Assembly: GCA_002327305.1 (NCBI GenBank)
Contig: DCUZ01000016.1
Location: 7,873-71,872 of the forward strand
Reading direction: 5' to 3'
Length of the DNA: 64,000 nucleotides
Origin: Holophagales bacterium UBA2201
GTDB lineage: Bacteria > Acidobacteriota > Thermoanaerobaculia > UBA2201
Of the stretch, positions 1 through 49,816 are shown one piece after another. The notes below the pieces were generated by a model. The model searched no databases, was not told where the DNA came from, and saw nothing but the letters and a program-made list of their open reading frames with translations. Positions within the stretch are counted from its first letter, which is position 1. Each line of letters starts with the position of its first letter. Both the position numbers and the translations under genes were made by a program.

Positions 1-485
1 GCTTCCAGTTCGTGGGCGTGCTTTTGGATGGAAAAGATGGTCATCAATGCGCCCAGGCCGTAGCCCAAGGTGGTGGACATGTCTTCTTTCAACAGAATCT
101 TGTCGAGCCAGCGGACGGATCGCCGGTGCTTATAGGGGCAAGCCCCTTTGGGATGCTCTTCGTAATAGTAGGCGCCCACTTCGCCCACCAGGTAGCGGCC
201 CTCGCCCAGCGGCGCAAGAACGCGGTCGCCCTCCTGCATCTCGAATCCGAACCGGTAGACCTGTCCCGCCTGCCCCGCCACCGACGCCACACTCGCCCCT
301 TCCGCCTTCAGTTCCTTCTTTATGTCTTTAAGTATTATTTCTTCTTTTCTTAATTCATAATTCTTAATTTTTAATTTGGAGGTGAGGTCGGGTATCTGGT
401 TCCACCCGATGGCAATGAAGCCTTCTTTGCGTGCTTCTTCAATGTATTTGGAACCTTCGCCGAGGCGGATCAGATAATAACTCAC
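1..485 (-). CDS. hypothetical protein, partial (N-terminus in window, C-terminus beyond position 1)
   Basis: The minus strand is open from a GTG at 485 (preceded by GGAGGGG 4 nt upstream) to the window edge with no stop. Translation starts VSYYLIRLGEGSKYIEEARKEGFIAIGWNQIPDL, then a Lys/Glu-rich linker, then ...GEGRYLVGEVGAYYYEEHPKG. It is absent from the ORF track because its stop lies outside the window. Family not recognised. Confidence 0.4.
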   Translation of the reverse strand, partial: MSYYLIRLGEGSKYIEEARKEGFIAIGWNQIPDLTSKLKIKNYELRKEEIILKDIKKELKAEGASVASVAGQAGQVYRFGFEMQEGDRVLAPLGEGRYLVGEVGAYYYEEHPKGACPYKHRRSVRWLDKILLKEDMSTTLGYGLGALMTIFSIQKHAHELE

Positions 486-561
486 TATCCCCTCCAGATA
501 TTAATCATTGACATGTGACTGCCAAAGGACATTCTATTATATTTGTTCTCGGCATTCCCAT

Positions 562-2223
562 TCATGCTTGTGCAAGATGCCATAATTCAAGGATAAATGT
601 CCTAGTCAGATTGAAATCGGAGGGCCTGAGTCCTTTTCGAACTACTTCATTGCATTTCTTCTTAAAACTCCCATAATTCTCTTTTTCAATTACTCCAACA
701 CCATCAGCGTCACGAGCTACTGTCACTCCTAACTTCTCCGCTTCGGAGATCATTCGATCAGAATAATGTCGTTCGATGCCTCGAAAGGACCGTCCTAGTT
801 TAGGATTAAAAGCACTATCAGGCCAAACACAGACTTTGCAGGGATCATGCTTTGAGAATAGCTTTTCGAATTGTGCTTTCTTGGATGCAACATCCCAGTC
901 TAATAGTATGATCACTGGAGATGCAATATTGCGTGCACGCAATGCTGATTTATTCGACTTTAAATATGCGTAAAGTGCATCAACTCCCCCCGCATCTTCT
1001 TCTTCATCCATCTGCGCGAGATATTGGATTCTAATGCATCGCTGTGGCTTAATCAGTGCAAGGGCTTCATTCAAATATGCAGCATCGAATTTCCCTTCTA
1101 CTAATATCAGCGGATCAAGAGGGCAAAATAGAAGAGGATGTGTCCATCTTGAGACACCTGCCGAGGCTGAAAGATCAATGATAGCCCGTTTGTCTCGCTC
1201 TGGATTCAAATTTGTACCGCTTGTTCCTTTCTCTAAGAATGCAGCAGAATCTGCATGTTGAATTATCATATCAGAGTGCGTGGTAGCGAATATCTGCAGG
1301 CGACCACCTTGTTCAGAAGCAATTTCAGAAAGGTACGATGCTAGATGAGCTTCTAAAGATGTATGCAAAGACGACTCCGGCTCTTCTGCAAGCCAGACAG
1401 CAGCTTGTCGCCAGCCAAATTGTTGGAAATAGTCACGGTCAATCAGCGCCAATGTTTCAAACATAAGTAGGCTTTGGATACCAGACCCTTGAAATATATC
1501 GTCGACATCTATACCGAGGTCCTTAAGCCTGTATCCTAGCGCGAAAACAATGTTAGCCCAGTTGTCCGGAGTTTTTAATTGAACTCCCTCAATCCCTGGG
1601 CAGAGATCCTTTACATGCTTTGACATTGGCTCCAGTAATGTATTTGACGTTTCTTCAATTGCTCCAAACAATTCAGTCGGTCTTGGTGCTTTCTTTCCAA
1701 GGCGTCTGACAAGTGCGTCGCGAAGGGCGCTGTGCTGCTGTTGGATAACATCTATTGGAAGAACCCTGTTGGGCACATAACGGATTGGGATAAGTGATAA
1801 GAATTGTTCAATACGCTGAGAATTTTCATAGTCTAAAGGCTTAGTGCTATTATTAATATAATATTGGGTATTTATAGAAGCACGCTCCCATACCTTTGTG
1901 ATAGTGGTCCCGCTTGCAATAAGATGCTTTACCTCCTCCAGGCCCTTCCGAAAAGAGAAATTTCCCGGGATATTAAACTTGACGGAAACAGAAATCTGCT
2001 TCTTCCTATGCTTCTTTGCATGGGGGAGGTGAAAATCCCGGTCTATTTCAAGGGGAATGCCCGGCTCACAGTTATCTGTAAAATACGCATAGATCGCACG
2101 CAATACGTTCGACTTGCCTGAATTATTCAGCCCACATAAAACATTGAAGTTCCCGAATTCATTTAACTCCAGATCAGCAATTGATCGGAATCCTTTAATG
2201 CGTGCAGCGCTTATCAATTCCAT
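562..2223 (-). CDS. OLD-family ATP-dependent endonuclease (ABC ATPase + Toprim)
   Basis: N-terminal Walker A GLNNSGKSNVL, Walker B-like AVWLAEEPE and an ATTHS H-loop. The C-terminal Toprim region has LILVEGKFDAAYL and LLDWD motifs. The gene is AT-rich relative to the backbone. Confidence 0.75.
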   Translation of the reverse strand: MELISAARIKGFRSIADLELNEFGNFNVLCGLNNSGKSNVLRAIYAYFTDNCEPGIPLEIDRDFHLPHAKKHRKKQISVSVKFNIPGNFSFRKGLEEVKHLIASGTTITKVWERASINTQYYINNSTKPLDYENSQRIEQFLSLIPIRYVPNRVLPIDVIQQQHSALRDALVRRLGKKAPRPTELFGAIEETSNTLLEPMSKHVKDLCPGIEGVQLKTPDNWANIVFALGYRLKDLGIDVDDIFQGSGIQSLLMFETLALIDRDYFQQFGWRQAAVWLAEEPESSLHTSLEAHLASYLSEIASEQGGRLQIFATTHSDMIIQHADSAAFLEKGTSGTNLNPERDKRAIIDLSASAGVSRWTHPLLFCPLDPLILVEGKFDAAYLNEALALIKPQRCIRIQYLAQMDEEEDAGGVDALYAYLKSNKSALRARNIASPVIILLDWDVASKKAQFEKLFSKHDPCKVCVWPDSAFNPKLGRSFRGIERHYSDRMISEAEKLGVTVARDADGVGVIEKENYGSFKKKCNEVVRKGLRPSDFNLTRTFILELWHLAQA

Positions 2224-2348
2224 TCTTATCCTCTTTTCACATAAAGAAAATACTGCTTCTGATATAAGACAAGCCGATTCTGTGCCCCTAACATTCTATG
2301 TAGCAGCAGACAAGATATTATTTAAGTGACAATTTTAAGACACTACGC

Positions 2349-4508
2349 TTATTCATGGCTTTTCCCCTCAACTATATATATCTCTTCATCATTCAGACCA
2401 TAGAGCTCATAGACCAACTTATCGATCTGCCGGTCGGTTGCGTCTATTTGGCGCTGAAACAGATTCTTTTGCTCCTCCAACTTTGCGGCCGATATTTTCT
2501 TATGCAAGGTGAGCATAGTACCTACCAAATCTACTATCTGCCCATGCCGCACCTTATCATCATTATTTGTAAAATCAATGATTCGAACAGGCACTTTTTC
2601 CATGTACTGGTAGATCAAACGATATCGGTACTGCCCAGCACGAACGCCGAATGGAATGCTGATATTGCTAATTGCAAACCAGAAGAGTTTACTGTTAAGC
2701 AACCCCAGAAGATACGGATCATTTACCCCAATGCAATAAGCGGTATTGGATAGGTAATGCCCCTCCCTATCAAGGCAGAAGCGCGGCCCTTTGGCAATAT
2801 CTGGATAAATGATTTTTGCCTGATCAAAAACCTCCCAATAGGCCACATCATCTTGGATCTCATACCACTCATATCGGCCTGGTTTTCGTCCGCGCTTTGC
2901 GTTTTTATCGCGCTTGGGTGTCAGATCTTCTTTCCATTTTGAAAGATGCTCCATAATTGCAGGATAGTCCTTGATCCGTACACCACGCCGCGTGAAAATG
3001 AGCCATTGATCTGCTTCATGAAATACATATCGCCTGATATCTTCGCCGCCGAGCATCGGATGAATTAACTCCGCACTATTGGCATCCTTTCTAATGAGGT
3101 CAGTCCTTGTTTTGCTGTCGATAATGAAGGCTTCGTTAAGCCCTGTTTTAATTCCATAGCATATTTTATCTTTTGCAAAGTCGCAAAGAGGGATACCCGC
3201 CTTTGTTATCTTCTCGAATACATGGGCTTCATCATCGGATTTTAGCGACCAAGCATCTGGCTCCAATCTGACATGTGGGATAAAGTAATGATTGGCTTCG
3301 ACAAACGACTTTAAGTCTTGAATTTGCAGGGAAGGGATTCGGCTAACTTCCACGCTCTGGGGCTGTTCTGTTTTAACGAAAAGAGGAATGCATACATAAG
3401 TGTCTTTCGCGTTTTCAAACACGGCCAAGCCACCAAAGTCCACTATGCGAAGCACGCCTGCATGCTTTTTGATCTGACGACGTAGTGACTCACCATAGGT
3501 AGCCCGCAAGAAACTGCTTGAAACAATGATGCTGAAACGACCATTAGCGCGGAGGAGATCAAGGCCCCGTTCTATAAAATATGCGTAGAGGTCTGCCACC
3601 CCATGATAAGCTTCGTACTGCTTGGAGAAATAGTCTTTGAATTCTGATAGAGTTTCCTGTCTGACATAAGGCGGATTCCCGATCACCACATCAAACCCGC
3701 CGCCCTTCATGATCGCCGGGAACTCCCGATCCCAATCGAAGGCGTTGATCCGCTTCCGGTCCTCGTCCGAAAACATGTCCAGTTGCCTGCCCTGGTAGAA
3801 GTCCTGCCCGATGAGCGAATTCCCGCACTTTATATTGGCCGTGAGATCGGGGAGGACAAGCCCCCTCATATAAAGCATCATCTGCCCCTTGTCGAATCCC
3901 TTGTCCAATAGTTTAAGGTAGAGCGACATGATGGCCACTTCGGTGGCCTCGCGGTCGATGTCCACACCGAAGAGGTTGTTCTTGAGGATCCTCCCCTTCT
4001 TCTCCACGGTGAGGCGGACGTCGCCCTCGGCGGTCTGGTACCAGTCGCGGGCGTGGGCCTTGTCCTTTTTGTGCTCCGCGTACCACTCTTCATGGTATCG
4101 GATGAGCCGATCGAAGGCGCCCAGGAGGAAGGAGCCGGAACCGCACGCCGGATCGAGGATCTTGAGGGTTTCGATCTCCGCGGGGGTCTTGCCCTTGATC
4201 TTTTCGCCCACGGTGTGCTCGACTATGTAATCCACCACCCACTGCGGGGTGTAATAGACGCCGCCGGCGTGGCGGACCTCGGGCTTTTCCTCCACCTTGG
4301 CGCGGTGGCCCTCGGTCAACCAGATCTTGGAGCCCAGGAACCGCTCGTAGATGCGGCCCAGGATCTCCGGCTCGATGATGTCGAACTGGTAGGGGCTGGC
4401 TGGAGCCACCTCCCGCCCTGCCGAAGGATGAAGTATGAAGGAAAAATTATGAAGGAGGGGCAGAAGGGGGACAGGGGTGGGACGAGAAAAAGCTTCAAGA
4501 TAGGTCAT
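2349..4508 (-). CDS. Type IIG restriction-modification enzyme, C-terminal fragment (gamma-class N6-adenine MTase + target-recognition region); nuclease/helical N-terminal part missing
   Basis: The fragment aligns to residues ~310-994 of the intact paralog at 21694-24678 (YERFLG, AKVEEKPEV, YYTPQWVVDYIVEHTVG, LDPACGSGSFLLGAF, VIGNPPYVRQE). The first ~35 codons (4395-4508) show no homology to the paralog. It overlaps the 3' end of the four-helix-bundle gene by 14 nt. Confidence 0.7.
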   Translation of the reverse strand: MTYLEAFSRPTPVPLLPLLHNFSFILHPSAGREVAPASPYQFDIIEPEILGRIYERFLGSKIWLTEGHRAKVEEKPEVRHAGGVYYTPQWVVDYIVEHTVGEKIKGKTPAEIETLKILDPACGSGSFLLGAFDRLIRYHEEWYAEHKKDKAHARDWYQTAEGDVRLTVEKKGRILKNNLFGVDIDREATEVAIMSLYLKLLDKGFDKGQMMLYMRGLVLPDLTANIKCGNSLIGQDFYQGRQLDMFSDEDRKRINAFDWDREFPAIMKGGGFDVVIGNPPYVRQETLSEFKDYFSKQYEAYHGVADLYAYFIERGLDLLRANGRFSIIVSSSFLRATYGESLRRQIKKHAGVLRIVDFGGLAVFENAKDTYVCIPLFVKTEQPQSVEVSRIPSLQIQDLKSFVEANHYFIPHVRLEPDAWSLKSDDEAHVFEKITKAGIPLCDFAKDKICYGIKTGLNEAFIIDSKTRTDLIRKDANSAELIHPMLGGEDIRRYVFHEADQWLIFTRRGVRIKDYPAIMEHLSKWKEDLTPKRDKNAKRGRKPGRYEWYEIQDDVAYWEVFDQAKIIYPDIAKGPRFCLDREGHYLSNTAYCIGVNDPYLLGLLNSKLFWFAISNISIPFGVRAGQYRYRLIYQYMEKVPVRIIDFTNNDDKVRHGQIVDLVGTMLTLHKKISAAKLEEQKNLFQRQIDATDRQIDKLVYELYGLNDEEIYIVEGKSHE

Positions 4509-8004: not shown

Positions 8005-9075
8005 TCACAGCTTCAGCGTCACCGCCAGGGTGGATTTGATGCGGGCGCCGGAGTCGGAGAAGAAATCCTCGCGCACATCGTGGAGGTAGCGCCCCAGGCC
8101 CGCCTCCACCTCGAGGTCCCGGCCGAGGGAGCGCCTCAGGCGCAGGGCGACGAAGTTCGTCGCGGCCTCGGTGAGGACGCGGGGATCGAAGAGGAGGTAG
8201 GAGCGCTCCAGCCGCCGGTCCTCGAACCGGAAGGAAAGGAGGAGGGTCCATCCCGGAGCGGGGGCGGCGGAGAGGGTGCCTTCGATCCCCCACCCCGTGT
8301 GCCCGAAGTCGGGGATGGATGAATCGGTCTCCTGGTAGAACAGCGCCGCCTGGACCAAAAACGGCCCCGCGACCTCCCACCCCAGGGAGACGAGGCGGAG
8401 GGTGTCGCGGTGGTCGCGGAACGAGGGGGGGGTGGGGGGCCCGCCGGAACCGCCCCCCGCGGGGATGACCAGAACGGGCTGGTCGAAATCCTGCACGGCG
8501 TAGGCGGCGGTGGCGCGAAGGCGGTGCCGCCCCCCCAGGGGCTGATCGGCCGCGAGGGAGGCGCGGGTCTGCCGGTGGGAAAAGACGGTGCGGTCCTGCA
8601 CCTCCAGGTCGCTCCAGTCGAGGGCGAGGCGGAGGCGGTCGTGCCACCGCAGGGCCGCCTCGGCGCCGAAGCGGGTGTAGGGGTCCTCCTCCACGGGGAA
8701 CCGCTCCTCCCTCCCCTGGGCGTCGCGGAACTGGTAGCGGGCGGAGCCGTCCAGCACCAGGCCGGCCCCCAGGGCTGCCCCGGCGCGGTATTCGAGGCCG
8801 CCGTAGAGCATCCGCGCGGGAGGGGGATCGGCGGACGAGCCCCCCCAGGGGTCCAGGACCGTGAAGTGGTAGGCGACGCTCTGCCGCGCCTTCGAGTACC
8901 CCCCCCCGACCCGCAGGGCCGAGAAGACGGCGCCGGCGTCGCCGGGTTCGAATTCATAGAGACGGGAATGGTGTTCGAGGCCGAGAGAGAACCGGCTCTC
9001 GCCCGCCCATTCCTCCGCCCCCCAGGCGCCGGCGGCCCAGAGGATGGCGCACAGGAGCGCGGTCAGACGGGTCAT
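8005..9075 (-). CDS. putative outer-membrane beta-barrel protein
   Basis: Signal peptide MTRLTALLCAILWAAGAWG followed by alternating amphipathic beta-strand-like sequence (start trimmed to this Met). Family unknown. Confidence 0.45.
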   Translation of the reverse strand: MTRLTALLCAILWAAGAWGAEEWAGESRFSLGLEHHSRLYEFEPGDAGAVFSALRVGGGYSKARQSVAYHFTVLDPWGGSSADPPPARMLYGGLEYRAGAALGAGLVLDGSARYQFRDAQGREERFPVEEDPYTRFGAEAALRWHDRLRLALDWSDLEVQDRTVFSHRQTRASLAADQPLGGRHRLRATAAYAVQDFDQPVLVIPAGGGSGGPPTPPSFRDHRDTLRLVSLGWEVAGPFLVQAALFYQETDSSIPDFGHTGWGIEGTLSAAPAPGWTLLLSFRFEDRRLERSYLLFDPRVLTEAATNFVALRLRRSLGRDLEVEAGLGRYLHDVREDFFSDSGARIKSTLAVTLKL

Positions 9076-9175
9076 CCCCCCCATTATCCCCGATGGGAGG
9101 GGCAAAAGCAATCCCGGAACCGCGCATTTGCTATAATCCGAAGATGCGTTCGCCAATCCCGCCCCGGACCGCCGG

Positions 9176-9943
9176 ATGCGCTTTCTCCTGACCAACGACG
9201 ACGGCATCTATTCGGAAGGGCTGAAGGTCCTCCACGACGCCCTTCTCCCCATGGGCGAGGTGTGGGTGTTCGCCCCCGACCGGGAGCGGAGCGCCGTCTC
9301 CCACGCGCTGACGCTGGACCGCCCCCTGCGCGCGGAGGAGCTCCGTCCCCGCTGGTGCGCCGTCTCGGGGACCCCCACCGACTGCGTCAACCTGGGGGCG
9401 ATGCACTTCATGAAGGGCTTCCCCCCCGACCTGGTGGTCTCCGGCATCAACATCGGCCTCAACCTGGGGGACGACGTCACCTATTCCGGCACCGTCTCCG
9501 CCGCCTTCGAGGCCTCCATCCTCGGCCTCCCCGGCTTCGCCTTCTCGCAGGAGATGGGGCGCGGCGTGGACCTGGCGGCCTCCGCCGCCGCGTGCGTCCG
9601 CATCGTGGCCTTCTTCGCACAGCGCGGCCTGCTCCGCCCCGGCGCCATCTACAACGTCAACATCCCCGCCGGCCCCTTCGGCCGGCCCCTCTTCGCCCGG
9701 CTCGGCAAGCGGCACTACCAGGAAAGCATCGTGGAGAAGCTGGACCCCCGCGGCCGGAAATACTACTGGATCGGCGGCGAGCCCATCCCGGGCCGGCCCG
9801 ACAAGGGAACCGATTTCGAGGCCCTCCACCGCCAGCGCATCAGCATCACCCCCCTCCATCTCGACCTGACGGAATATCCCGTCCTGCAGGACCTGCGGTC
9901 CCTGCAGGGGGAGTTGGAGGCCCTCTTCGATGCCCGGGAGTGA
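9176..9943 (+). CDS. surE: 5'/3'-nucleotidase SurE
   Basis: MRFLLTNDDGIYSEGL...SGINIGLNLG hallmark motifs. It is upstream of pcm as in the classic surE-pcm pair. Confidence 0.9.
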   Translation: MRFLLTNDDGIYSEGLKVLHDALLPMGEVWVFAPDRERSAVSHALTLDRPLRAEELRPRWCAVSGTPTDCVNLGAMHFMKGFPPDLVVSGINIGLNLGDDVTYSGTVSAAFEASILGLPGFAFSQEMGRGVDLAASAAACVRIVAFFAQRGLLRPGAIYNVNIPAGPFGRPLFARLGKRHYQESIVEKLDPRGRKYYWIGGEPIPGRPDKGTDFEALHRQRISITPLHLDLTEYPVLQDLRSLQGELEALFDARE

Positions 9944-10568
9944 CGACCGCCGCCGGGCCCTCCTCGACCACCTGCGGGAAACCGTCCCGTTCCTCCCCGC
10001 GACGGTGCTGGAGGCCCTGGACAAGGTGCCCCGCGACCGTTTCGTCCCCGGGGACTTCGCGGACCACGCCTGGGAGGACCAGGCCCTCTCCATCGGCCTG
10101 GAGCAGACCATCTCCCGCCCCTCCACCGTGGCGCGGATGCTCGCCGCCATCCAGCCGACGAAGAAGGACACGGTGCTGGAGGTGGGGACGGGGACCGGCT
10201 ACCAGACGGCCCTCCTGGCGGAACTGGCCCGGTTCGTCTTCTCCATCGAGCGGCTCCACGACCTGGGAAGCGCCGCCGCCGAGCGGCTCAAGGCCCTGGG
10301 CTATTCCAATTTCTCCATCAGTATCTTCGACGGCGGGTACGGGTGGCCCCAGTTCGCCCCCTACGACTGCATCGTGGCGGCCTGCGCCTCCCCCAAGCCG
10401 CCGCGGGCGCTGTTGACGCAGTTGAAGGAGGGGGGGCGGATGGTCATGCCGGTGGGGACGGGGCGCCACCAGCACCTCCTTTTCATCACCCGGGACGAGA
10501 AGGGATTCATCTACACCCATCTGGACAAAGTCACCTTCGTCCCCTTCATCACGGACGGGGTGAAGTGA
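9930..10568 (+). CDS. pcm: protein-L-isoaspartate O-methyltransferase
   Basis: VLEVGTGTGYQTALLA SAM-binding motif and PIMT-like length. It overlaps the surE end. Confidence 0.9.
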   Translation: MPGSDDRRRALLDHLRETVPFLPATVLEALDKVPRDRFVPGDFADHAWEDQALSIGLEQTISRPSTVARMLAAIQPTKKDTVLEVGTGTGYQTALLAELARFVFSIERLHDLGSAAAERLKALGYSNFSISIFDGGYGWPQFAPYDCIVAACASPKPPRALLTQLKEGGRMVMPVGTGRHQHLLFITRDEKGFIYTHLDKVTFVPFITDGVK

Positions 10569-12222: not shown

Positions 12223-14052
12223 ATGCCCGCCTTCCATCGCGTCGCCCTCATGCAGGCCTACCCCACCATCCCGGTCTGGCATGAATACTACATCCCCGAC
12301 CTGGTGGAACTGTGCATGCTGGCGGCGTCCCTCCGGCCCCTCGGATGCGCGGTGGACATCCCCGTCCACCCCAACGGCCGCGACCCCCTGGGGGAGTTCG
12401 AGCGGTACCTGGACCGATGCAAGCCGGACCTGGTGGGCCTCTCCGTCTTCACCTGCGGGGTCCCCTCCGCCCTGCGGTGCGCCGAGGCCGCCAAGCGGGC
12501 CGGGGCCGTGGTCGTCGCGGGGGGCTACCACCCCTCCGCCCGGCCGGAGGAGATGCTGGCCTCGCCCTTTGTGGACTGGGTGGTTCGCGGCGAGGGGGAG
12601 ATCACTCTGGCCGAGCTGGTCCGGACGGGTTCACCGGAGGGGGTGGAGGGGGTGTCGTTCCGCCGGGACGGAAGCGTGGTCCACAATCCGCCGCGCCCCC
12701 TCATCCCCGACCTCGACGCCCTGCCGGCGCCGTGGCGCGAGCTCCGGCCCGAGCGGGCCGGCCGCCGGGGCCTCGACTACCACACCGACACCATCTACGC
12801 CTCGCGCGGCTGCCGGGGGAAGTGCGTCTTCTGCGCCAACCACCTCGTGGGCGGGGCCTGGCGGGAGCGGGACATGGAGCACATCCTGGCCGAACTGCTC
12901 TCCCTTCCGCGCCCGCGCCGCAAGCGCCCCAAGAAGATCAAGTTCTGGGACTCCTCCTTCCTCGCCGACGCCCCCCGCGTGGAACGGCTGTGCCGGGGCA
13001 TTTTGGAGCACGGGCTCCAGCGCCCATTCCGCTTCATCGCCGAGAGCCGGGCGGAGGACATCGTCCGCGCCGCGGAGATCATTCCGCTGATGAAGGAGGC
13101 GGGGTTCGTCCGGATCGGGTGCGGCATCGAGAGCCCCCACAAGAAGACCCACGCCACGCTGAAGAAGGGGCTCAACCCCGACCACCTGCTCCGCGCCGTC
13201 GCCCTCCTCCAGGCCGTCAACATCCAGTTTTCCAAGTTCTACATCCTCGGACACGAGGGGGAGAGTGAGGAGGAGATCCGGGCCTACCCGGAGGAGGCGC
13301 TGAAGGTGGGGTTCAACCGCCAGCACACCACCTTCTTCATCATGACCCCCTATCCCGGCACGGAGCTGGCGCGGCGCTACGAGGAGCGGGGCCTCATCGC
13401 CAGCCGGGACTGGTCGCTCTACAACAATCTCGTGGCGGTGGTTTCGCCGGAGGGGATCCCGCCCCGGCGTTTGCAGGTGCTCCACGCCGGCGTGGTCCTG
13501 CGGCACAAGGGCTTCCGCCGGTTCCATGACGGCACCCCGGCGGCCGCCTGCCTGGGGGGGCTGTGGGAGCCGCTGTTTTTGCTCGCGCTGGTGGAGCGCC
13601 GCCGCGACCCCCACCGCACACGGCGGGAGCTGGCGGAGGACCTGCACGACGCCCTGGTCTCCGCAAGCGGGGAGGCCTCGCGTCCCACACGCCCGGACCG
13701 CCCCACCAGGTTCAAAGACCGCTTGGCCCTGCGCTTCCACCTGAAAGGCCGGCCCAGCGTCTGGGTGGGCGGGGGGGACGACGGGACCACGGCCACCATG
13801 GGGATCCGGCCGGGCGCCCCACCCCTGCCGGGCCGGTGGGAGGTGCACATCGACCTCCAGCGCCTGGCGGACCTGGCCGACCGGACCGACCAGCGCCTCC
13901 TCTCCAGCGACGCCCTCACCCTCTTCTGGACGCCGCGGGCCTTCCGCCTCCGGTGGGCGCCGTTGTTCGTCCGTGAAGTTTCGAAGGCCCTCTTCGGTCT
14001 GGCTCAAATGGCGTGGTTTCATTGCCGTGCGGCTCTGCGGCGGCGGCCCTGA
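12223..14052 (+). CDS. B12-binding domain radical SAM protein
   Basis: N-terminal cobalamin-binding-like region and radical SAM cluster motif CRGKCVFC (CxxxCxxC). Confidence 0.75.
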   Translation: MPAFHRVALMQAYPTIPVWHEYYIPDLVELCMLAASLRPLGCAVDIPVHPNGRDPLGEFERYLDRCKPDLVGLSVFTCGVPSALRCAEAAKRAGAVVVAGGYHPSARPEEMLASPFVDWVVRGEGEITLAELVRTGSPEGVEGVSFRRDGSVVHNPPRPLIPDLDALPAPWRELRPERAGRRGLDYHTDTIYASRGCRGKCVFCANHLVGGAWRERDMEHILAELLSLPRPRRKRPKKIKFWDSSFLADAPRVERLCRGILEHGLQRPFRFIAESRAEDIVRAAEIIPLMKEAGFVRIGCGIESPHKKTHATLKKGLNPDHLLRAVALLQAVNIQFSKFYILGHEGESEEEIRAYPEEALKVGFNRQHTTFFIMTPYPGTELARRYEERGLIASRDWSLYNNLVAVVSPEGIPPRRLQVLHAGVVLRHKGFRRFHDGTPAAACLGGLWEPLFLLALVERRRDPHRTRRELAEDLHDALVSASGEASRPTRPDRPTRFKDRLALRFHLKGRPSVWVGGGDDGTTATMGIRPGAPPLPGRWEVHIDLQRLADLADRTDQRLLSSDALTLFWTPRAFRLRWAPLFVREVSKALFGLAQMAWFHCRAALRRRP

Positions 14053-21455: not shown

Positions 21456-21621
21456 TCAGCGGTTCAGCGCCGGGAACGATGCCAGCGGGGGGGCGCCCCA
21501 GATGCGGACGGACGCGGGGATCCCGTTGACGACGCAGGTCCACGAACCGTCCGTGCCCAACCCCGACATCTCCGCCATCCACACCGCCCCCCAGCCGTCC
21601 CGCGACGGGGCCTCGATGCGG
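21456..21621 (-). pseudogene. displaced native 3' end (alternative C-terminus) of the secreted-protein gene now at 27580-28080
   Basis: Reading the minus strand through repeat copy A gives ...MAEMSGLGTDGSWTCVVNGIPASVRIWGAPPLASFPALNR*. This is homologous to the C-terminus of the 27580-28080 product (...DYTWACTVDGRHSSIRVWGTPPLSSFPALNQAK*). Confidence 0.55.
21549..21621. repeat. 73-bp direct repeat, copy A (att-like boundary)
   Basis: 72/73 nt identical to 27680-27752 (tccgtgccca[a/g]ccccgacatctccgccatccacaccgccccccagccgtcccgcgacggggcctcgatgcgga). Confidence 0.85.
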
Positions 21622-21693
21622 AGTGCCATCCGGTCCCGGAGCCGGTCGCCGGATGTCTGCCGTTTGGGGGAGCTTTCCTAACGTCGCTTCGGA

Positions 21694-24678
21694 GTGTACA
21701 ATAAGCGCATGGGCATTGAAACAATCAAAGGTCTCGTGGACCGGTTTGAAACCCATCGGGATTCCTATACCTCCGGCTCCTACAACGAAACCCAGCTCCG
21801 CCGCGAGTTCCTGGACCCCTTCTTCAAGGCCCTCGGTTGGGATGTCTTCAACGAAAAGGGCTACGACGAGGCCTACAAAGAGGTCATCCACGAGGATTCC
21901 CTCAAGATCGGCGAATCCACCAAGGCCCCCGACTACTGCTTCCGCATCGGCGGCGTGCGCAAGTTTTTCGTGGAGGCCAAGAAGCCCTCCGTCAACGTCA
22001 AAGAGGATGTCTCCCCCGCCTACCAATTGCGCCGCTATGCCTGGAACGCCGACCTCCCCCTTTCCATCCTCACCGATTTCGAGGAGTTCGCCGTCTACGA
22101 TTGCCGTGAAAAGCCGGCTCTGACCGACAAGGCCTCCAGGGCCCGCGTCCTCTACCTCCCCTTCCACGAGTACCCGGAGCGCTGGGAGGAACTGGCCGCG
22201 CTTTTCTCCCCCGAGGCCGTCCTCAAGGGCTCCTTCGACCGCTACGCCCGATCGGCCAAGGCCAAGCGGGGCACCGCCGGGGTGGACGACGCCTTCCTAG
22301 AGGACATCGAGCGGTGGCGGGAACTGCTGGCCAGGGGCTTCGCCCTGCGCAACCCGGCCCTCTCCACCCATACCCTCAACTTCGCCGTTCAGCGCACCAT
22401 TGACCGCATCATCTTCCTGCGCATCGCCGAGGACCGCGGCCTGGAGCCCTACGGCACGCTTCTGGGGCAAATCAACGGCGAAGGCGTCTATCCCCGCCTC
22501 GTCGAGCTCTTCCGCAAGGCCGACCAGAAATACAACTCCGGCCTCTTCCACTTCCAGAATGAGAAGGGCCAGCACGAACGGCCCGACGACCTCACCCCCC
22601 GCCTCCACCTCGACGACAAGCCGCTGAAGGCGATCATCCAAGGGCTCTACTACCCCGAGAGCCCCTACGAGTTCTCCGTCATGCCCGCCGACATCCTGGG
22701 GCAGGTCTATGAGCGGTTCCTGGGAAAAGTCATCCGCCTCACCGCCGGCCATCAGGCCAAGGTGGAGGAGAAGCCGGAGGTGAAAAAGGCCGGCGGCGTA
22801 TTTTATACTCCCACCTTCATCGTGGACTACATCGTCCGGCATACGGTGGGACGGCTCCTGGAGGGCAAGACCCCCAAACAGATTTCAAGCCTGCGCATCC
22901 TGGACCCCGCCTGCGGCTCCGGCTCCTTCCTTCTGGGAGCCTACCAGTGCCTTCTCGACTGGCACCGCGACTGGTACCTTGCCGACGGCGCCGCGATACA
23001 CCCCAAGGAGATTTACCGCGCCCACACCGGGCAGTGGCGCCTCACCACCCCGGAGCGCAAGCGCATCCTCCTCAACTCCATCCACGGCGTGGACCTGGAC
23101 CCGCAGGCTGTGGAGGTCACCAAGCTCTCCCTCCTGCTGAAAGTCCTGGAGGGGGAGACGGAGCAGACTCTCCAGCACCAGATGGACTTCATGCGCGCCC
23201 GCGCCCTGCCCGACTTGGGGCGTAACATCCAGTGGGGCAACTCCCTCATCGGGGGCGACTACACCCACGGCCGGCAGTTGGACTTCGTGCCGGAGGAGGA
23301 GCGGTACCGCGTCAACCCCTTTGATTGGGCCCGCCAGTTCTCCGCCGTCATGGAGGCGGGGGGCTTCGACGCCGTCATCGGCAATCCCCCTTATGTGCGG
23401 CAGGAGACCCTGGGCGACGACTTCAAAGCGTATGCCGGCACGCACTTCAAGACCTTCGCCGGCACCGCCGACCTCTATGTCTATTTCATCGAGCGGGGCA
23501 TCTCGCTCCTGAAGGATGGCGGGATCTTCTCCTACATCGTCGCCAACAAGTGGCTGAGGGCCGCCTATGGGAAGCCTCTCCGGCAGTGGCTCAAGGACAA
23601 GGCCGTCGAGGAGATCGTGGACTTCGGCGACCTCCCCGTCTTCCAGGGCGCCACCACCTACCCCTGCATCCTGCGCGTCGCCAAGAGCAAGGCCAAGAAG
23701 AGTTTCAGCGCCGCCAAAGTACCGGACTTGGAGTTCACCGATCTGGAGGAGAAGGTCAAGGACCTGCGATACACCGTAGAGAAGACGACCCTCTCTCCAG
23801 ACGGCTGGTCGTTGGCCGACGCCAAGGTTTCGGCCCTCCTGGGGAAGATCAAGGCCCAAGGAATCCCTCTGAAAGAGTATGTCAAGGGAAAGATCTATCG
23901 GGGCGTTCTGACCGGCTTCAACGAGGCCTTTGTTATTGACGAGGCGACAAAGAAACGGCTCATCCAAGAAGACCCCAAAAGCGCCGAACTCATCAAGCCC
24001 TTCCTCCAGGGGCGCGACATCAAGCGGTATCAGCCGCCCACCCCGACGCGCTATCTCATCTTTACGCGCCGGGGAGTGGACATCAAACGCTATCCCGCCA
24101 TCGAGCGGCATCTGCTCCAATATAAAGAACTTCTAATGCCGAAGCCGAAAAACTGGAAGGGGAAAGAGTGGAAGGGGCGCAAGCCGGGGGCGTATCAGTG
24201 GTACGAGATTCAAGACAGCACCGATTATTACTCGGAATTTGAGAAGCCTAAGATTCTCTGGCCTGAAATAGCAGGCGATGCACGCTTCACCTTTGACCCC
24301 GCAGGCTGCTATGCCAACAACAAAGTGTTTCTAATTCCCTCTGAGGATAAATACCTTCTTGGCTTGTTGAACTCTTCGTTGCTAAAGACCTTCATACACT
24401 CCGTATGCACTGATCTCCAGGGCAGTAGTTTCAACTTCAGTGCTGTCTTTGTGCAAAAGACGCCTATCGTTGTGCCTGATCTTAAGGACAAAACACGGGT
24501 GAAGGCCAAAGAAGAGATCCTCGCCCTGGTGGACCAGCTACTTAAGATGAATGCCGACCTGGCTACCTGCACAAGCAATCAGCAGCGGGTGCTATGCCAG
24601 CGATATATTCTTGCCCACGAGAAGCAGATAAATAATGCTGTCTGTTCAATATACCGAATCGATCATGATGATTGCTAG
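21694..24678 (+). CDS. Type IIG restriction-modification enzyme (PD-(D/E)XK nuclease + gamma-class N6-adenine MTase + TRD), intact
   Basis: 994 aa. N-terminal PDYCFRIGGVRKFFVEAKKP (PD..EAK), SAM motif LDPACGSGSFLLGAY and catalytic VIGNPPYVRQE. The size and order match MmeI-like Type IIG/IIL enzymes. An alternative start is at 21709. Confidence 0.8.
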   Translation: MYNKRMGIETIKGLVDRFETHRDSYTSGSYNETQLRREFLDPFFKALGWDVFNEKGYDEAYKEVIHEDSLKIGESTKAPDYCFRIGGVRKFFVEAKKPSVNVKEDVSPAYQLRRYAWNADLPLSILTDFEEFAVYDCREKPALTDKASRARVLYLPFHEYPERWEELAALFSPEAVLKGSFDRYARSAKAKRGTAGVDDAFLEDIERWRELLARGFALRNPALSTHTLNFAVQRTIDRIIFLRIAEDRGLEPYGTLLGQINGEGVYPRLVELFRKADQKYNSGLFHFQNEKGQHERPDDLTPRLHLDDKPLKAIIQGLYYPESPYEFSVMPADILGQVYERFLGKVIRLTAGHQAKVEEKPEVKKAGGVFYTPTFIVDYIVRHTVGRLLEGKTPKQISSLRILDPACGSGSFLLGAYQCLLDWHRDWYLADGAAIHPKEIYRAHTGQWRLTTPERKRILLNSIHGVDLDPQAVEVTKLSLLLKVLEGETEQTLQHQMDFMRARALPDLGRNIQWGNSLIGGDYTHGRQLDFVPEEERYRVNPFDWARQFSAVMEAGGFDAVIGNPPYVRQETLGDDFKAYAGTHFKTFAGTADLYVYFIERGISLLKDGGIFSYIVANKWLRAAYGKPLRQWLKDKAVEEIVDFGDLPVFQGATTYPCILRVAKSKAKKSFSAAKVPDLEFTDLEEKVKDLRYTVEKTTLSPDGWSLADAKVSALLGKIKAQGIPLKEYVKGKIYRGVLTGFNEAFVIDEATKKRLIQEDPKSAELIKPFLQGRDIKRYQPPTPTRYLIFTRRGVDIKRYPAIERHLLQYKELLMPKPKNWKGKEWKGRKPGAYQWYEIQDSTDYYSEFEKPKILWPEIAGDARFTFDPAGCYANNKVFLIPSEDKYLLGLLNSSLLKTFIHSVCTDLQGSSFNFSAVFVQKTPIVVPDLKDKTRVKAKEEILALVDQLLKMNADLATCTSNQQRVLCQRYILAHEKQINNAVCSIYRIDHDDC

Positions 24679-26002
24679 CGCCGCAAACCCAGGCGTCTTC
24701 AACATACGCAGCGAATTATCAGATAAAAGCATTAGAATTCTATCAAACCAAATTGATCAAGTATTTTCGAAGAAGGGATTGGCCTTTCCGAGAAGTGCAG
24801 AAGAATTGAAAAAGTATGCTTATAATCCTTACATTAAAATAGATGGCAATATTTTTCATTTAAGTGCAATCGGATCGCAAGCGCTTGAGCGCATATTGGC
24901 CATATTTCAAGGCATTAAACCGCTGAGCGATTTACTTAGCCCAAATGATTATTACCGGATCATCCTTGGCGAGATCGAGAATTGGATCAATCGCAAATTG
25001 GTACCAAGTCCTGATGTATTCATTGATTCGGTAGAAAAGCATATATTGACCTATATAGATTGGTATCAGTTTCTATGCAAAATAGATGGGTTAATCTTGC
25101 AAGGTGTTGATCAATTGCCAATAGGAGGAAAAATAATAAGTAAGTACACACCAGAAATTCTCGATAACATAATGCAAAAATCGGATGATTTTATAAAGAT
25201 CATCAATACTGAACATAATAATTCTATTGTTATTTCAGGGAAAGAAAGAGGATCGATTGATTCAGCTTCGAGAAAATTCTGCTTCAATGCAGAATTGTGC
25301 CTATCGCTGTTGCGATTGTATCACTGTATCGCAAGAGGAGGTGATATACTGCGCCCCAAAATTAGGTTAGTTAGCGAGTGTCATGGCGCTTATGGATCAG
25401 CTATTGTATTTGGATGGGATGAGAAAACAAAGAGCGAAACTTGGATAAGACATTTTAAGGAAGATTTAAGCCTTGTAATAGACAATGAAATGTTAACTTA
25501 CTTCAGAAAGCAATGTTATTGGGATCAGTTAGCGGGCCTTATCTTAAAAGAAGACAGAAGCGAAGTAGAGGAAGCGATAGTTAAATCACTTTATTGGTTT
25601 GGCGAAGCGCATAAGGAACGCACAATTGTTACAAAATGGATTCTATTGTGGACTTGCATTGAATGCTATTTTTCTATTGATGATGAGCGGATAACAGAAA
25701 ATAATGCAATGGGCGTTGCAACTTTCCTTAAATTTGGTGGATATTCATTTGACGAATATAATGATTATCGCAAATTAAAGAGCAAGATCAGGAAATATTA
25801 TGAACTTAGAAGTCTTGCTCTGCACAGAGCATCTTATCAACATATTGAGTCTGAAGCTCTCGAGACATTTGCTCAAATGGTTGCCTGGGTGATCATTATA
25901 ATGGTCTCATTGTCATTGAGAGGTTATAACAATTTAGTCCAGATAAAGAAAGAAGCAGAAAGATTAGATAGCCTGCACTATTCGGATCAGAAAAATGGAT
26001 AA
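24635..26002 (+). CDS. hypothetical protein (AT-rich; C-terminal Rx4H HEPN-like motif), candidate defence-associated partner of the Type IIG gene
   Basis: 455 aa. Its start overlaps the R-M gene stop (alternative ATGs at 24665/24668). The C-terminal helical region contains YELRSLALHRASYQH (Rx4H). No other recognisable motif. Confidence 0.5.
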   Translation: MLSVQYTESIMMIASAANPGVFNIRSELSDKSIRILSNQIDQVFSKKGLAFPRSAEELKKYAYNPYIKIDGNIFHLSAIGSQALERILAIFQGIKPLSDLLSPNDYYRIILGEIENWINRKLVPSPDVFIDSVEKHILTYIDWYQFLCKIDGLILQGVDQLPIGGKIISKYTPEILDNIMQKSDDFIKIINTEHNNSIVISGKERGSIDSASRKFCFNAELCLSLLRLYHCIARGGDILRPKIRLVSECHGAYGSAIVFGWDEKTKSETWIRHFKEDLSLVIDNEMLTYFRKQCYWDQLAGLILKEDRSEVEEAIVKSLYWFGEAHKERTIVTKWILLWTCIECYFSIDDERITENNAMGVATFLKFGGYSFDEYNDYRKLKSKIRKYYELRSLALHRASYQHIESEALETFAQMVAWVIIIMVSLSLRGYNNLVQIKKEAERLDSLHYSDQKNG

Positions 26003-26354
26003 AGCGCTTTACATTTCCCTGCTCGTTGCCGTTGCAACTCCCGTTGTAGCATTCGCCCTGCGGCTGGCCTGGAAGGCAATCCGGCTATGGCATGCCCGCC
26101 GTCTCTCAGTGGAGGAGAAGCATCTGCTCCACTATGCGGCCAAATCCCAAGGCATGATCCACCACATGGAGGCCGATCAAATCCCCGGCGGATGGGTCCG
26201 CGCCGGCGGGATGGATTTCGACACGGAGCCCCGCCGGGCGGGTCTTTACCTTGCGGCTCTCGAACGCCTGATCGCCCTGGGCTATGTGGAGTACAAGTCG
26301 GGAAACCTATTCACTTTGACCCATTCCGGCTGGAAAAAGGGGGAAAGGACATGA
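25995..26354 (+). CDS. small membrane-anchored hypothetical protein
   Basis: 119 aa with one N-terminal TM helix (LYISLLVAVATPVVAFAL). Its ATG overlaps the upstream stop by 8 nt. Confidence 0.4.
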   Translation: MDKALYISLLVAVATPVVAFALRLAWKAIRLWHARRLSVEEKHLLHYAAKSQGMIHHMEADQIPGGWVRAGGMDFDTEPRRAGLYLAALERLIALGYVEYKSGNLFTLTHSGWKKGERT

Positions 26355-26397: not shown

Positions 26398-27408
26398 ATG
26401 GTCGTTCATGCATCCTATGTCTGCCCCCGTTGTCATGGAGGCATGGAGATCGGGCCAAGCGGACTGATCTGTCCGGCCTGCACAATCACTTATCCGGTGG
26501 CGGATGGTATCGCCGACTTCTCTGAAGGCCATTACTACGATCAGTTCGACCCCTCCTCCTCGCTCACCGTCGAACATCAGGCGGGGCTAAATCACGAGGT
26601 CGAGGGGTCCCGATGGCGCATCCAGGCCTATTATCTCCCCAAGATCGAAACGACTTTACGCAAATTTGCTCTGGAGCGCTCCAGGATACAGATCCTGGAT
26701 TGCGGCTGCGGCAACGGCTGGTCGGTGGACCTGCTAAACGACACGGGGCTCTTGACCTGGGGGGTTGACCTGTCCCAATTGCGCCGGTGGCAGTGGAGGG
26801 AGCGCAAGCACAAAGGCAACCTTGCGGTGGCCGACGCCCGCCGTCTTCCCTTCGAGGATGGCCGTTTTCATTTCATCCTCTGTTCCGGCGTCATTGAGCA
26901 CATCGGGGTCCAGGAGTACAAGCTGGGGGCCTATAGCGTGAAACCCCTGGAAAACCGCGACGCCATGCGAACAGCATTCCTTTCCGAACTCCTGCGGGTC
27001 CTCGCTCCCGGCGGCACGCTCTGGCTGGATTGTCCCAACGGGGCCTTCCCCATTGATTTCTGGCATGGCGATCGGGTGGGCCAGGCCCGCCGCCATGCGC
27101 TGAATGAGGGCTTCCTGGCCAAGACCGGCGAGATTCGGAGCTATCTATCGGCGATCAAGACGCCGGCTTCCTTGAAGCCGCGCAGCCCTCATCGCCTATT
27201 CCGCTTCCAGCAGGTGGGGCGGCATTGGTACGGTCGTGCGATCCGGCCTTTGATGGGTATATATTTCAACCTCATGCGTGTGTTTCCTTTCTCCATCTTG
27301 GCCGGCACGGGCCTCAATCCGTACTTGGTCCTGGAGATCAGCAAGGAGGCAGATCATGTGCATTCGAAGGAGCACTCTACGGCAATATTGCTTATCAAAC
27401 AACAGTAA
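26398..27408 (+). CDS. class I SAM-dependent methyltransferase with N-terminal Trm112-like zinc ribbon
   Basis: CPRCHGGM...CPAC zinc ribbon, then ILDCGCGNGWSVDLL (motif I) and ADARRLPFEDGRFHFILCSGVIEHI (Methyltransf_11-like). No DNA-MTase DPPY/NPPY motif. Confidence 0.7.
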   Translation: MVVHASYVCPRCHGGMEIGPSGLICPACTITYPVADGIADFSEGHYYDQFDPSSSLTVEHQAGLNHEVEGSRWRIQAYYLPKIETTLRKFALERSRIQILDCGCGNGWSVDLLNDTGLLTWGVDLSQLRRWQWRERKHKGNLAVADARRLPFEDGRFHFILCSGVIEHIGVQEYKLGAYSVKPLENRDAMRTAFLSELLRVLAPGGTLWLDCPNGAFPIDFWHGDRVGQARRHALNEGFLAKTGEIRSYLSAIKTPASLKPRSPHRLFRFQQVGRHWYGRAIRPLMGIYFNLMRVFPFSILAGTGLNPYLVLEISKEADHVHSKEHSTAILLIKQQ

Positions 27409-27579: not shown

Positions 27580-28080
27580 TTATTTTGCCTGATTCAATGC
27601 CGGAAATGAAGAAAGCGGCGGCGTGCCCCATACCCGGATTGAGCTATGCCTGCCATCAACGGTGCAAGCCCATGTATAATCCGTGCCCAGCCCCGACATC
27701 TCCGCCATCCACACCGCCCCCCAGCCGTCCCGCGACGGGGCCTCGATGCGGAACTCCAGGGGGTCCTTCAACGCGTGGCCGGGGACGCGGAGGAACCGGA
27801 CCTCGTCGGCCGGCAGGTCGCCGAGCTTCCCGCCGTTCAGGATGATCGCGCCGCCGGTCAGGGACCACGCCCGCAGGCGCATCTCCTGCCGCCCGGCACG
27901 GGCGAAGGCACGCACGAAAACGACGGTTTCCGGCTCCGCCGCCGGCAATTTCCCGTCCCGCCAGATCACTTGGCCTCCCGGTTCCGCGGCGCGGAGCTTC
28001 TCCGAGTGGAAGCGGTGGACGGATTGCCACAAAATACAAATGGCGAAAAGGGACAGGCCGGCAATCAATATCCGTTTCAT
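27580..28080 (-). CDS. secreted hypothetical protein (host gene carrying island-supplied 3' end)
   Basis: 166 aa with signal/TM MKRILIAGLSLFAICILW. Its last ~60 codons include repeat copy B and a lower-GC tail. Confidence 0.5.
   Translation of the reverse strand: MKRILIAGLSLFAICILWQSVHRFHSEKLRAAEPGGQVIWRDGKLPAAEPETVVFVRAFARAGRQEMRLRAWSLTGGAIILNGGKLGDLPADEVRFLRVPGHALKDPLEFRIEAPSRDGWGAVWMAEMSGLGTDYTWACTVDGRHSSIRVWGTPPLSSFPALNQAK
27680..27752. repeat. 73-bp direct repeat, copy B (att-like boundary, within coding sequence)
   Basis: See copy A. Here it encodes LEFRIEAPSRDGWGAVWMAEMSGLGT of the 27580-28080 product. Confidence 0.85.
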
Positions 28081-28085
28081 GGATA

Positions 28086-28470
28086 GTTTCGAGTTTCGAG
28101 TTTCGAGTTTCGAGTTGAGAAGCGGGAAACGCGGTTTCGAGTCTCGAGTTTAGAGTTTCGAGTTGTCAAACGGGAAACGCAGTTTCGAGTTTCGAGTTTC
28201 GAGTTTCGAGTTGAGAAGCGGGAAACGCGGTTTCGAAGTTCGAGTTCATAGTTTCGTGTTGAGAAGCAGGATGTAGAGAGAGTTGTGCTTTTAACTTTCA
28301 ACTCGCAACTCGCAACTTTGCTCTGGTTTTGTCTTTAATTCGGAACTCGAAACTCGAAACTCGCAACTTTGCTCTGGTTTTGTCTTTAATTCGAAACTCG
28401 CAACTCGCAACTCGCAACTTTGCTCTGGTTTTGTCTTTAATTCGAAACTCGCAACTCGCAACTCGCAACT
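28086..28470. repeat. composite tandem-repeat array: 4 units of ~48 bp built from (TTTCGAG)n + TTGAGAAGCGGGAAACGCGG, then 3-4 units of ~51 bp built from (AACTCGC/AACTCGA)n + AACTTTGCTCTGGTTTTGTCTTTAATTCG
   Basis: Read directly. It occupies the whole intergenic/promoter region between the ABC-2 permease stop and the start of the 27580-28080 gene. Confidence 0.85.
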
Positions 28471-48233: not shown

Positions 48234-48911
48234 TTATAAATATTGCGGGAAGAATAAGCCTTCAGTGTCACCACTATGTGAACTAATCTCTTCTTCTTTT
48301 AGAAGACGGACATCACCGTATCTGCCAACAAATACCGTCTCTTTGAATATGGTTGGCATATATGCTTTAGGAATTGGCTTTATTACATATCGCGTTATTT
48401 CATAACCGTAACCAACGGGAACTACCCTGGCCTCTTGGAAGCGAAGCCACTTCCATTTGCTGGTGGGGAGGCACACACCAATGCAGCCGCTATGCCCTGT
48501 TCGAGGATAGATCTCTAATTTCTGCTCTTCAAACAAATGTACTGTATTAAAAGAAGAAAAGAATCTGAAATAAACTAAAGCGTCAGATGCACTCCATAAA
48601 AATATGCAGCCATGAAGGTCATTGGGACCTTTCACTTCATTTTCCAGCCCGTTCTTTTTAAGTACTACTTTTTCAGTGTACTCGGGGGGAATGCTGACGC
48701 CGGGAACGAACTCCACGTGACAGTCTTCTTTGAGCATCGTCAGTGTTATGCATGTGCTATCAGAAGTATAATCCAGACATCGATAGCTGGAGCCATTAAT
48801 GGAATGCCACCCTGCTCTGGAGGCGCAGCCGATTGTTGTAACGGCGACAAGCAGAAGTAATGATTGACTCAGCACGAGTTTATAGCTCTCTATGAGGTTC
48901 TTTGGCATCAT
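48234..48911 (-). CDS. putative lipoprotein, paralog 1 (possible orphan Rhs immunity protein)
   Basis: Signal peptide + lipobox-like TIGC. ~40% identical over ~150 aa to the 49068-49763 product. In a low-GC region. Confidence 0.45.
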   Translation of the reverse strand: MMPKNLIESYKLVLSQSLLLLVAVTTIGCASRAGWHSINGSSYRCLDYTSDSTCITLTMLKEDCHVEFVPGVSIPPEYTEKVVLKKNGLENEVKGPNDLHGCIFLWSASDALVYFRFFSSFNTVHLFEEQKLEIYPRTGHSGCIGVCLPTSKWKWLRFQEARVVPVGYGYEITRYVIKPIPKAYMPTIFKETVFVGRYGDVRLLKEEEISSHSGDTEGLFFPQYL

Positions 48912-49067
48912 GATTATTCCCCTGCCTTTCTACAATGGGATTCTTTCTTCTCTTGCTGAACTTTAACGGTTGCGTTGATGTATTTTATACATTTTAGACT
49001 ACCTATTCATATTTGCTATTTTGGGTTGCACCGCACCGGCACTCTTGATCATCGTGCCTGCCGGTCC

Positions 49068-49763: not shown

Positions 49764-49816
49764 ATATTATTCTCCTTCTATTTGTCAGGGCATTTTCCAC
49801 AAAAATCCTCTTTTGA

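Follow-up and report, generated by a model that had tools for sequence, protein, structure and literature searches.

A candidate ApeA-like HEPN ribonuclease gene carried as cargo in a Type IIG restriction-modification island of Holophagales bacterium UBA2201

A 64,000-nucleotide (nt) stretch of the genome of Holophagales bacterium UBA2201 (Acidobacteriota; contig DCUZ01000016.1, positions 7,873 to 71,872; hereafter the window) contains a gene for a 445-amino-acid (aa) protein that begins within the end of a Type IIG restriction-modification (R-M) gene. By analogy with characterized relatives, this protein is probably (at a probability of roughly 0.6) a self-contained, compact ApeA-like abortive-infection ribonuclease (RNase) carried as cargo in an R-M island. 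Sequence profiles and a predicted structure point to an ApeA-lineage HEPN domain at its C terminus with a complete catalytic set, R382, H387, and E333 forming the predicted active site. An earlier note, made from the letters of the window alone, had drawn attention to the gene and grouped it with the Type IIG gene upstream and a small membrane protein gene downstream.

A predicted HEPN domain related to ApeA

The candidate gene and the predicted elements of its HEPN domain are located as follows.

24665-26002, plus strand: HEPN-candidate gene, 445 aa; an alternative in-frame ATG at 24635 would give 455 aa; stop codon TAA at 26000-26002
25517-25999, plus strand: C-terminal HEPN domain, residues 285-445
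25661-25663, plus strand: E333 of the W-x-C-x-E motif in HEPN helix 2, a conserved acidic residue near the active site, invariant in 108 family members
25808-25825, plus strand: R382-x4-H387 putative catalytic motif (RSLALH) at the C-terminal end of HEPN helix 3, invariant in 108 family members

Searches of Pfam, NCBIfam, PADLOC, PHROG, and the PDB sequences with the 445-aa protein returned no direct match at E ≤ 1, and a word-indexed homologue search recovered nine proteins only, among them one from Mesorhizobium that carries the NCBI name "HEPN domain-containing protein". An exhaustive profile search extended this set to 986 representatives (50% identity clusters) at E ≤ 1e-3, including 192 at E ≤ 1e-30. 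The family representatives are nearly all 430 to 450 aa long and match over their full length; three longer members (P0019, P0029, and P0078) have fused regions without Pfam matches. Judged by these profiles, the window protein belongs to a large HEPN family for which Pfam, NCBIfam, and PADLOC hold no model. The Pfam family MauJ (PF17419), a protein from methylamine-utilization clusters whose function is not established, is weakly matched by 15 of 108 family members (best E = 0.0036) and may be a related HEPN-like family.

We aligned 108 representatives of the family, which share 18% to 37% identity with the query. Six residues are invariant among them (G142, W311, E333, Y379, R382, and H387). 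The arginine and histidine of the last pair had been noticed earlier as an Rx4H motif, the minimal signature of HEPN RNases, and a check of the codons places this motif in YELRSLALHRASYQH, encoded at 25799-25843. Since R382 and H387 are invariant in the nine close homologues as well as in the 108 distant ones, the motif is not a chance match.

An AlphaFold2 model of the 445-aa protein (predicted local distance difference test score, pLDDT, 77.6) places R382-S-L-A-L-H387 at the C terminus of the third core helix (residues 368-388) and E333, within W-T-C-I-E, at the end of the second (residues 321-333). In the definition given for HEPN domains (PMC3710099), helix 3 ends with an Rx4-6H motif in which the arginine is followed by a polar residue. 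The predicted protein has such a motif in this position, with the polar S following R382, and a conserved acidic residue, E333, in helix 2 near the motif. Because this arrangement corresponds to the published definition, the model supports a HEPN fold, in agreement with the helical, HEPN-like C-terminal region anticipated in the earlier note. For the N-terminal ~285 aa the model predicts a fold of mixed alpha and beta elements and, at residues 238-267, a disordered loop; neither Foldseek nor profile searches found a PDB match for this region. A Foldseek search of the PDB with the full model likewise gave nothing significant, the best match being Csm6 (E = 0.23).

The link to ApeA, an abortive-infection tRNA anticodon nuclease (bioRxiv 10.64898/2026.01.26.701840), comes from a profile of the C-terminal domain only, built from 39 diverse family members and compared with the sequences of the whole PDB. 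This profile matched Ec1ApeA (2.5e-6), Ec2ApeA (7.5e-3), Ec4ApeA (8.5e-3), and, more weakly, Ec3ApeA (0.066). Only ApeA proteins reached significant E-values in the PDB, and the sole non-ApeA match was 8e55 (SG135; E = 0.21). Trimming to the C-terminal domain was required to reach ApeA; full-length family profiles gave insignificant PDB matches only and touched ApeA just at the two HEPN motifs. The alignment with ApeA consists of two collinear stretches that cover both motifs. Counted along the printed alignment, R382 and H387 fall on R502 and H507 of Ec2ApeA, and R502 is the residue changed in the catalytic mutant of the published structure (bioRxiv 10.64898/2026.01.26.701840). The W-x-C-x-E motif of the family (E333) aligns with W-x-a-l/i-E of the ApeA proteins. 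The spacing between the two aligned stretches is ~96 residues in Ec2ApeA versus ~14 profile positions in the family. Among the 108 aligned members, two match the PADLOC ApeA model (up to 1.1e-7), and three weakly match the model for PD-T7-3 (DARNA; 0.007). The homology of the catalytic domains, with the conservation of all three predicted active-site residues, suggests a HEPN domain of ApeA descent with its catalytic residues intact, and the earlier impression that the locus resembles no recognized system gives way to that of a distant ApeA relative.

The HEPN-candidate gene differs from its surroundings in base composition, as had been estimated by eye. Its GC content is 36.7% and its GC content at third codon positions (GC3) is 0.35, against a GC3 of 0.87 to 0.95 in the flanking genes (0.95 in secF and 0.87 over codons 1-640 of the Type IIG gene). 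The 3' third of the Type IIG gene (23611-24675) is intermediate (GC3 0.69), and the two genes downstream of the HEPN gene have a GC3 of 0.68 to 0.72. In all 30 loci measured, the GC content of the HEPN-family gene is below that of its host locus. Its composition marks the HEPN gene as a foreign and horizontally mobile gene. Elsewhere in the window, positions 1-4000 are also low in GC (43% to 48% versus ~65% to 70% elsewhere) and encode 553-aa and 719-aa open reading frames (ORFs) on the minus strand.

The Type IIG island and its variable slot

The HEPN gene is one of four co-directional genes between two copies of a direct repeat, which we delimited as follows.

21463-21652, no strand assigned: left copy of a 190-nt imperfect direct repeat, with a 73-nt core at 21550-21622
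21694-24678, plus strand: Type IIG ORF, GTG start, 994 aa, stop codon TAG at 24676-24678
23611-24678, plus strand: target recognition domain (TRD) third of the Type IIG gene, lower in GC and diverged between orthologues
25995-26354, plus strand: gene for a 119-aa protein with one N-terminal transmembrane helix (by hydropathy)
26398-27408, plus strand: gene for a class I S-adenosylmethionine (SAM) methyltransferase, 336 aa, with an N-terminal Trm112-like zinc ribbon (by Pfam)
27593-27782, no strand assigned: right copy of the direct repeat, within the 3' end of a gene for a 166-aa protein (27580-28080, minus strand)

The earlier assignment of the upstream gene to Type IIG stands. The PADLOC model REase_MTase_IIG (PDLC03604) spans residues 10-993 of its product (2.7e-207), Pfam identifies HSDR_N, Eco57I (1.2e-45), N6_Mtase, and TaqI_C domains, and the motifs DPACGSGSF and GNPPY are readable in the translation. 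A single chain thus combines an N-terminal PD-(D/E)xK-type nuclease, a gamma-class N6-adenine methyltransferase, and a C-terminal TRD, and by this domain content the gene encodes an ordinary full-length Type IIG enzyme. Gene callers chose ATG 21709 (989 aa) on identical metagenome contigs, and this is the likely start.

For the HEPN gene two starts come into question. Translation from ATG 24635 would give 455 aa and a 44-nt overlap with the Type IIG gene, and translation from the ATGATG at 24665 (24665/24668, inside ATGATGATTGCTAG) gives 445 aa and a 14-nt overlap. The 445-aa start is favored, since gene callers and the N termini of homologues agree best with it; the length of 455 aa given earlier belongs to ATG 24635 and does not fit the start that was quoted with it, which yields 445 aa. 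At the other end, the TAA stop codon (26000-26002) overlaps the ATG of the 119-aa ORF (25995) by 8 nt. Both overlaps, as originally described, are present in the ORF map and in the raw sequence. The sole strong terminator-like hairpin follows secF, upstream of the Type IIG gene, and weaker hairpin matches within the four-gene stretch do not rise above shuffled controls. The Type IIG and HEPN genes probably share a transcript and are probably coupled in translation. No Rfam family or tRNA was found in scans of the window.

The 119-aa protein has a single hydrophobic helix at approximately residues 4-26, in keeping with the one transmembrane segment predicted for it before, and had no match at E ≤ 1 in Pfam, NCBIfam, PADLOC, PHROG, or the PDB sequences. 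The methyltransferase that follows matches Pfam Methyltransf_11 (9.8e-15) and Trm112p (2.8e-4).

The repeat copies (family D2) are 74% identical over 190 nt, with 72 of 73 core positions identical, and bracket exactly these four genes. The minus strand of the left copy still codes for 57 aa of the 166-aa protein, a remnant of residues 108-164 at 72% identity (E = 3e-31). Because the repeat brackets the genes and its left copy is a remnant of the C terminus of the 166-aa protein, the arrangement suggests a ~6.1-kb island integrated in the 3' end of a gene. No integrase was found within the island and no empty integration site was recovered; every contig with an identical 166-aa protein carries the island. 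Between the 166-aa gene and an ABC-2 permease gene lie two adjacent, mutually inverted tandem arrays (28085-28271 and 28293-28470; periods of 48 and 51 nt) built of the heptamers AGTTTCG and TCGCAAC.

Comparison with a related genome (locus L016) indicates which parts of the island are exchangeable. L016 has an orthologue of the Type IIG gene, followed by ~3.3 kb of other genes, including DUF6036 nucleotidyltransferase-like and RAMA-domain genes (8599-9986), and then by a 118-aa and methyltransferase gene pair; the 119-aa-like gene recurs in part ~3 kb downstream (13503-13763). The Type IIG orthologues are ~70% identical over aa 1-632 (56% to 73% by segment) and 38% identical over aa 640-989. 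Since L016 holds other cargo, the island appears to have a conserved frame, the Type IIG gene at one end and the 119-aa and methyltransferase genes at the other, with an exchangeable TRD and cargo in the middle. The frame occupies a different chromosomal setting in L016, which is consistent with mobility. The best reading of these comparisons is that the HEPN gene is cargo in the variable slot of the window. The nearest relatives of the TRD share at most 61% identity over the full query. The HEPN gene is absent from both contexts of TRD relatives that were inspected. These comparisons speak neither for nor against a joint arrival of the low-GC TRD with the HEPN gene.

A second case of exchangeable low-GC ends in the window is found in a 1633-aa Rhs/YD-repeat toxin gene (50800-55701, minus strand), whose product matches type VI secretion system (T6SS) Rhs cores among the PDB sequences (~1e-25). 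The C-terminal tip of this toxin and four small ORFs downstream (48234-50787) lie in a region of 43% to 47% GC, which probably represents an exchanged toxin tip together with orphan or immunity cassettes.

Gene neighborhoods and alternative explanations

To characterize the genomic setting of the HEPN family, we assembled 26 loci from reference genomes, 62 from metagenomes, and several contigs found by exact protein look-up. A Type IIG gene is nearby in one of 30 genome or long-contig loci and in none of the 62 metagenome loci (tblastn with the Type IIG protein of the window); two of the latter show only weak methyltransferase similarity, 4 to 6 kb away. The sole other Type IIG-linked locus, L022, is from a metagenome-assembled genome of Candidatus Scalindua (JAIQZR010000188.1, 610-6153). 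It contains a Type IIG orthologue (57% identity), then a gene for a 317-aa protein with a nucleotide cyclase domain (Pfam Guanylate_cyc, 2.8e-10), and then a HEPN gene (42% identity), and none of its genes overlap. All-against-all BLAST of the neighbors of HEPN-family genes identified no partner conserved across lineages; the gene is almost always solitary. Upstream ORFs of ~317 aa in four loci were considered as a shared partner and rejected, as they are unrelated (cyclase, Mrr, TonB, and NERD).

The 119-aa protein has homologues with 67% to 77% identity, P0011-P0013 among them. The same class I SAM methyltransferase follows in all four loci that are sufficiently long (L016, L017, L018, and L019), with 70% to 72% identity to that of the window in L016, L017, and L019. 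None of the five loci of 119-aa homologues examined (L016-L020) has a HEPN-family gene, and no 119-aa homologue stands beside any HEPN-family member in the loci examined. The conserved partner of the 119-aa protein is the downstream methyltransferase, not the HEPN gene. The three genes proposed in the earlier note to form an R-M-linked defense module thus do not recur together across lineages, with the Type IIG gene present in 1 of 30 and 0 of 62 loci and the 119-aa gene paired with the methyltransferase. The gene overlaps are real, although they resemble an insertion of cargo into an R-M island and not a conserved operon design.

A defense role for the HEPN protein is plausible. The N-terminal ~285 aa would serve as a sensory or regulatory part and the C-terminal 160 aa, with R382, H387, and E333, as the HEPN RNase domain. 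HEPN RNases act independently of metal, through a composite active site that a dimer provides. By analogy with ApeA and other HEPN effectors, the protein most likely dimerizes via its HEPN domain and remains inactive in healthy cells. An infection cue received by the N-terminal part might then lead to the cutting of tRNA anticodon loops or other RNA, which would stop growth and abort the infection. The locus would in this way provide two layers of defense, DNA restriction first and RNA-level suicide second.

Several observations weigh against an ApeA-like abortive-infection RNase. The window protein reaches no ApeA or HEPN model of Pfam, PADLOC, or NCBIfam at E ≤ 1, including Pfam HEPN_Apea and PADLOC ApeA; it is ~150 aa shorter than ApeA, and its N-terminal region is unlike the N-terminal and Mid domains of ApeA. 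Pfam and PADLOC scans of 122 neighbors of family members found mostly housekeeping or unannotated genes, and an enrichment of the family in defense islands is suggestive only. In favor of a defense role, defense-type genes are the immediate neighbors in some loci, namely Mrr_cat (L021), NERD (L045), Fic (L043), and the Type IIG and cyclase-domain genes of L022. The family is nearly absent from phages and plasmids, with genes in 0 of 50,697 phage records, 2 of 2.9 million viral contigs, and 1 of 72,556 plasmids, a Sinorhizobium plasmid on which the gene lies beside insertion sequence (IS) elements, in keeping with its mobility, and is labeled "HEPN domain-containing protein"; this near-absence is uninformative on function either way.

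The overlap of the Type IIG and HEPN genes raises the question of whether their products act together. In a PrrC-like guard arrangement, the Type IIG enzyme would hold the HEPN protein latent in a complex until a phage anti-restriction factor inactivated the enzyme and thereby released the RNase, and overlapping stop and start codons would match the synthesis of both partners. This is consistent with the 14- to 44-nt overlap without an intervening terminator, with the independent joining in L022 of the same Type IIG subfamily (57%) and the same HEPN family (42%), and with the precedents of PrrC-EcoprrI and of ApeA genes in R-M operons (PMC3710099). However, ~90 other family loci have no adjacent R-M gene, so the HEPN protein must be regulated there without a Type IIG partner. 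In addition, the two genes in L022 are separated by the cyclase-domain gene without overlap, the nearest TRD relatives have no HEPN gene downstream, and L016 has the Type IIG orthologue without a HEPN gene. We consider a guard function unlikely, because nearly all family members lack an R-M neighbor. A three-component system with the membrane protein as co-effector or anchor, as the earlier note envisaged, might explain why both junctions overlap (14 and 8 nt) among co-directional genes, but is largely refuted by the gene-neighborhood data and is very improbable. The conserved neighbor of the 119-aa gene is the methyltransferase; the 119-aa gene is present in L016-L020 without a HEPN-family gene; homologues of the 119-aa protein stand beside no HEPN-family locus elsewhere; and the 119-aa gene has a host-like GC content (59%), unlike the HEPN gene.

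Two further explanations concern the HEPN protein itself. It could be an addiction toxin, an RNase that selfishly stabilizes the island together with an unrecognized protein or RNA antitoxin and without a phage sensor. Among minimal HEPN proteins, many serve as the toxin of a toxin-antitoxin pair, for example HepT, which is among the best structural matches, and the gene is mobile and compositionally foreign. Yet the family has no conserved small neighboring gene, and the conserved additional region of ~285 aa is typical of self-regulated single-gene effectors such as ApeA and DARNA and not of minimal toxins; we rate a toxin as slightly less probable than a guarded RNase. Lower again we place a cellular RNA-processing or regulatory HEPN protein without a role in defense. 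The mostly housekeeping neighbors and the weak MauJ matches would fit such a function; the patchy distribution across phyla, the AT-richness of the gene relative to each host, the variable contexts, and the antiviral roles of the closest characterized relatives do not.

Significance and comparison with known systems

The searches delimit a HEPN family of ~1000 clusters (50% identity) from many phyla that has no Pfam, NCBIfam, or PADLOC model, and tie it to the experimentally characterized ApeA with predicted catalytic residues that can be named. Because of this link and these residues, the family is a concrete candidate for defense testing and for inclusion in defense-finder databases. The locus also illustrates the swapping of cargo genes and TRDs in a slot downstream of a Type IIG gene. 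The association of HEPN proteins with R-M systems has been known since 2013, and NCBI labels two members of the family as HEPN. Two points are new: that this family without a model forms an ApeA-like branch distinguished by its N-terminal region, and that the Type IIG island has a cargo slot; no new kind of multi-gene system is revealed. A new sensor domain may reside in the N-terminal region, one tuned to a cue other than the deoxydinucleotides of ApeA. If the HEPN protein were guarded by the Type IIG enzyme after all, PrrC-type logic would have arisen anew, from a new HEPN family and a Type IIG enzyme.

Among R-M systems, the upstream gene resembles MmeI/Eco57I-type Type IIG enzymes in being full-length, with a nuclease, an NPPY methyltransferase, and a TaqI_C TRD. 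It differs only in its lower-GC TRD third, which is exchanged relative to the L016 orthologue. The locus as a whole recalls PrrC/EcoprrI, in which an anticodon nuclease is kept latent by a Type I R-M enzyme, in that the gene for a HEPN RNase lies physically within an R-M locus; by analogy, this suggests a two-layer DNA and RNA defense. HEPN genes next to R-M genes are a recurring theme, as the earlier note stated, and ApeA family genes are embedded in R-M operons of some bacteria (PMC3710099). PrrC, in contrast to the window protein, bears an ABC-ATPase domain at its N terminus and is a conserved constituent of R-M operons, whereas the family described here is almost always solitary.

Self-contained proteins that unite a HEPN RNase with a sensor domain include DARNA (PD-T7-3), AbiV, and the C-terminal domain of AbiA, and the window protein is likely to be of this general design. 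DARNA carries its HEPN domain at the N terminus and senses through a Pds5-like helical domain; in the window protein the order is reversed and the presumed sensor has a predicted mixed alpha/beta fold.

The closest known relative is ApeA (Ec1-Ec4ApeA, structures 9hxn, 9hxd, 9hxm, and 9hxj; Pfam HEPN_Apea), for which phage-triggered anticodon cleavage, a ligand pocket, and a doughnut-shaped oligomer have been described; ApeA is activated when 5'-phosphorylated deoxydinucleotides occupy this pocket, which lies between the N-terminal and HEPN domains (bioRxiv 10.64898/2026.01.26.701840). Both proteins are single polypeptides with a large non-catalytic N-terminal part, and their HEPN domains are homologous by profile (Ec1ApeA, 2.5e-6), with W-x-x-x-E of helix 2 and Y-x-x-R-[SN]-x3-H of helix 3 aligned collinearly. 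The window protein is 445 aa long versus ~590 to 620 aa for ApeA; its predicted HEPN domain is compact (~160 aa) and lacks the ~100-aa insert between helices 2 and 3, and the N-terminal and Mid domains and the split HEPN domain with large inserts that characterize ApeA are absent from it. Because of its smaller size, the missing HEPN insert, and the unmatched N-terminal region, we class the family as ApeA-like and not as ApeA.

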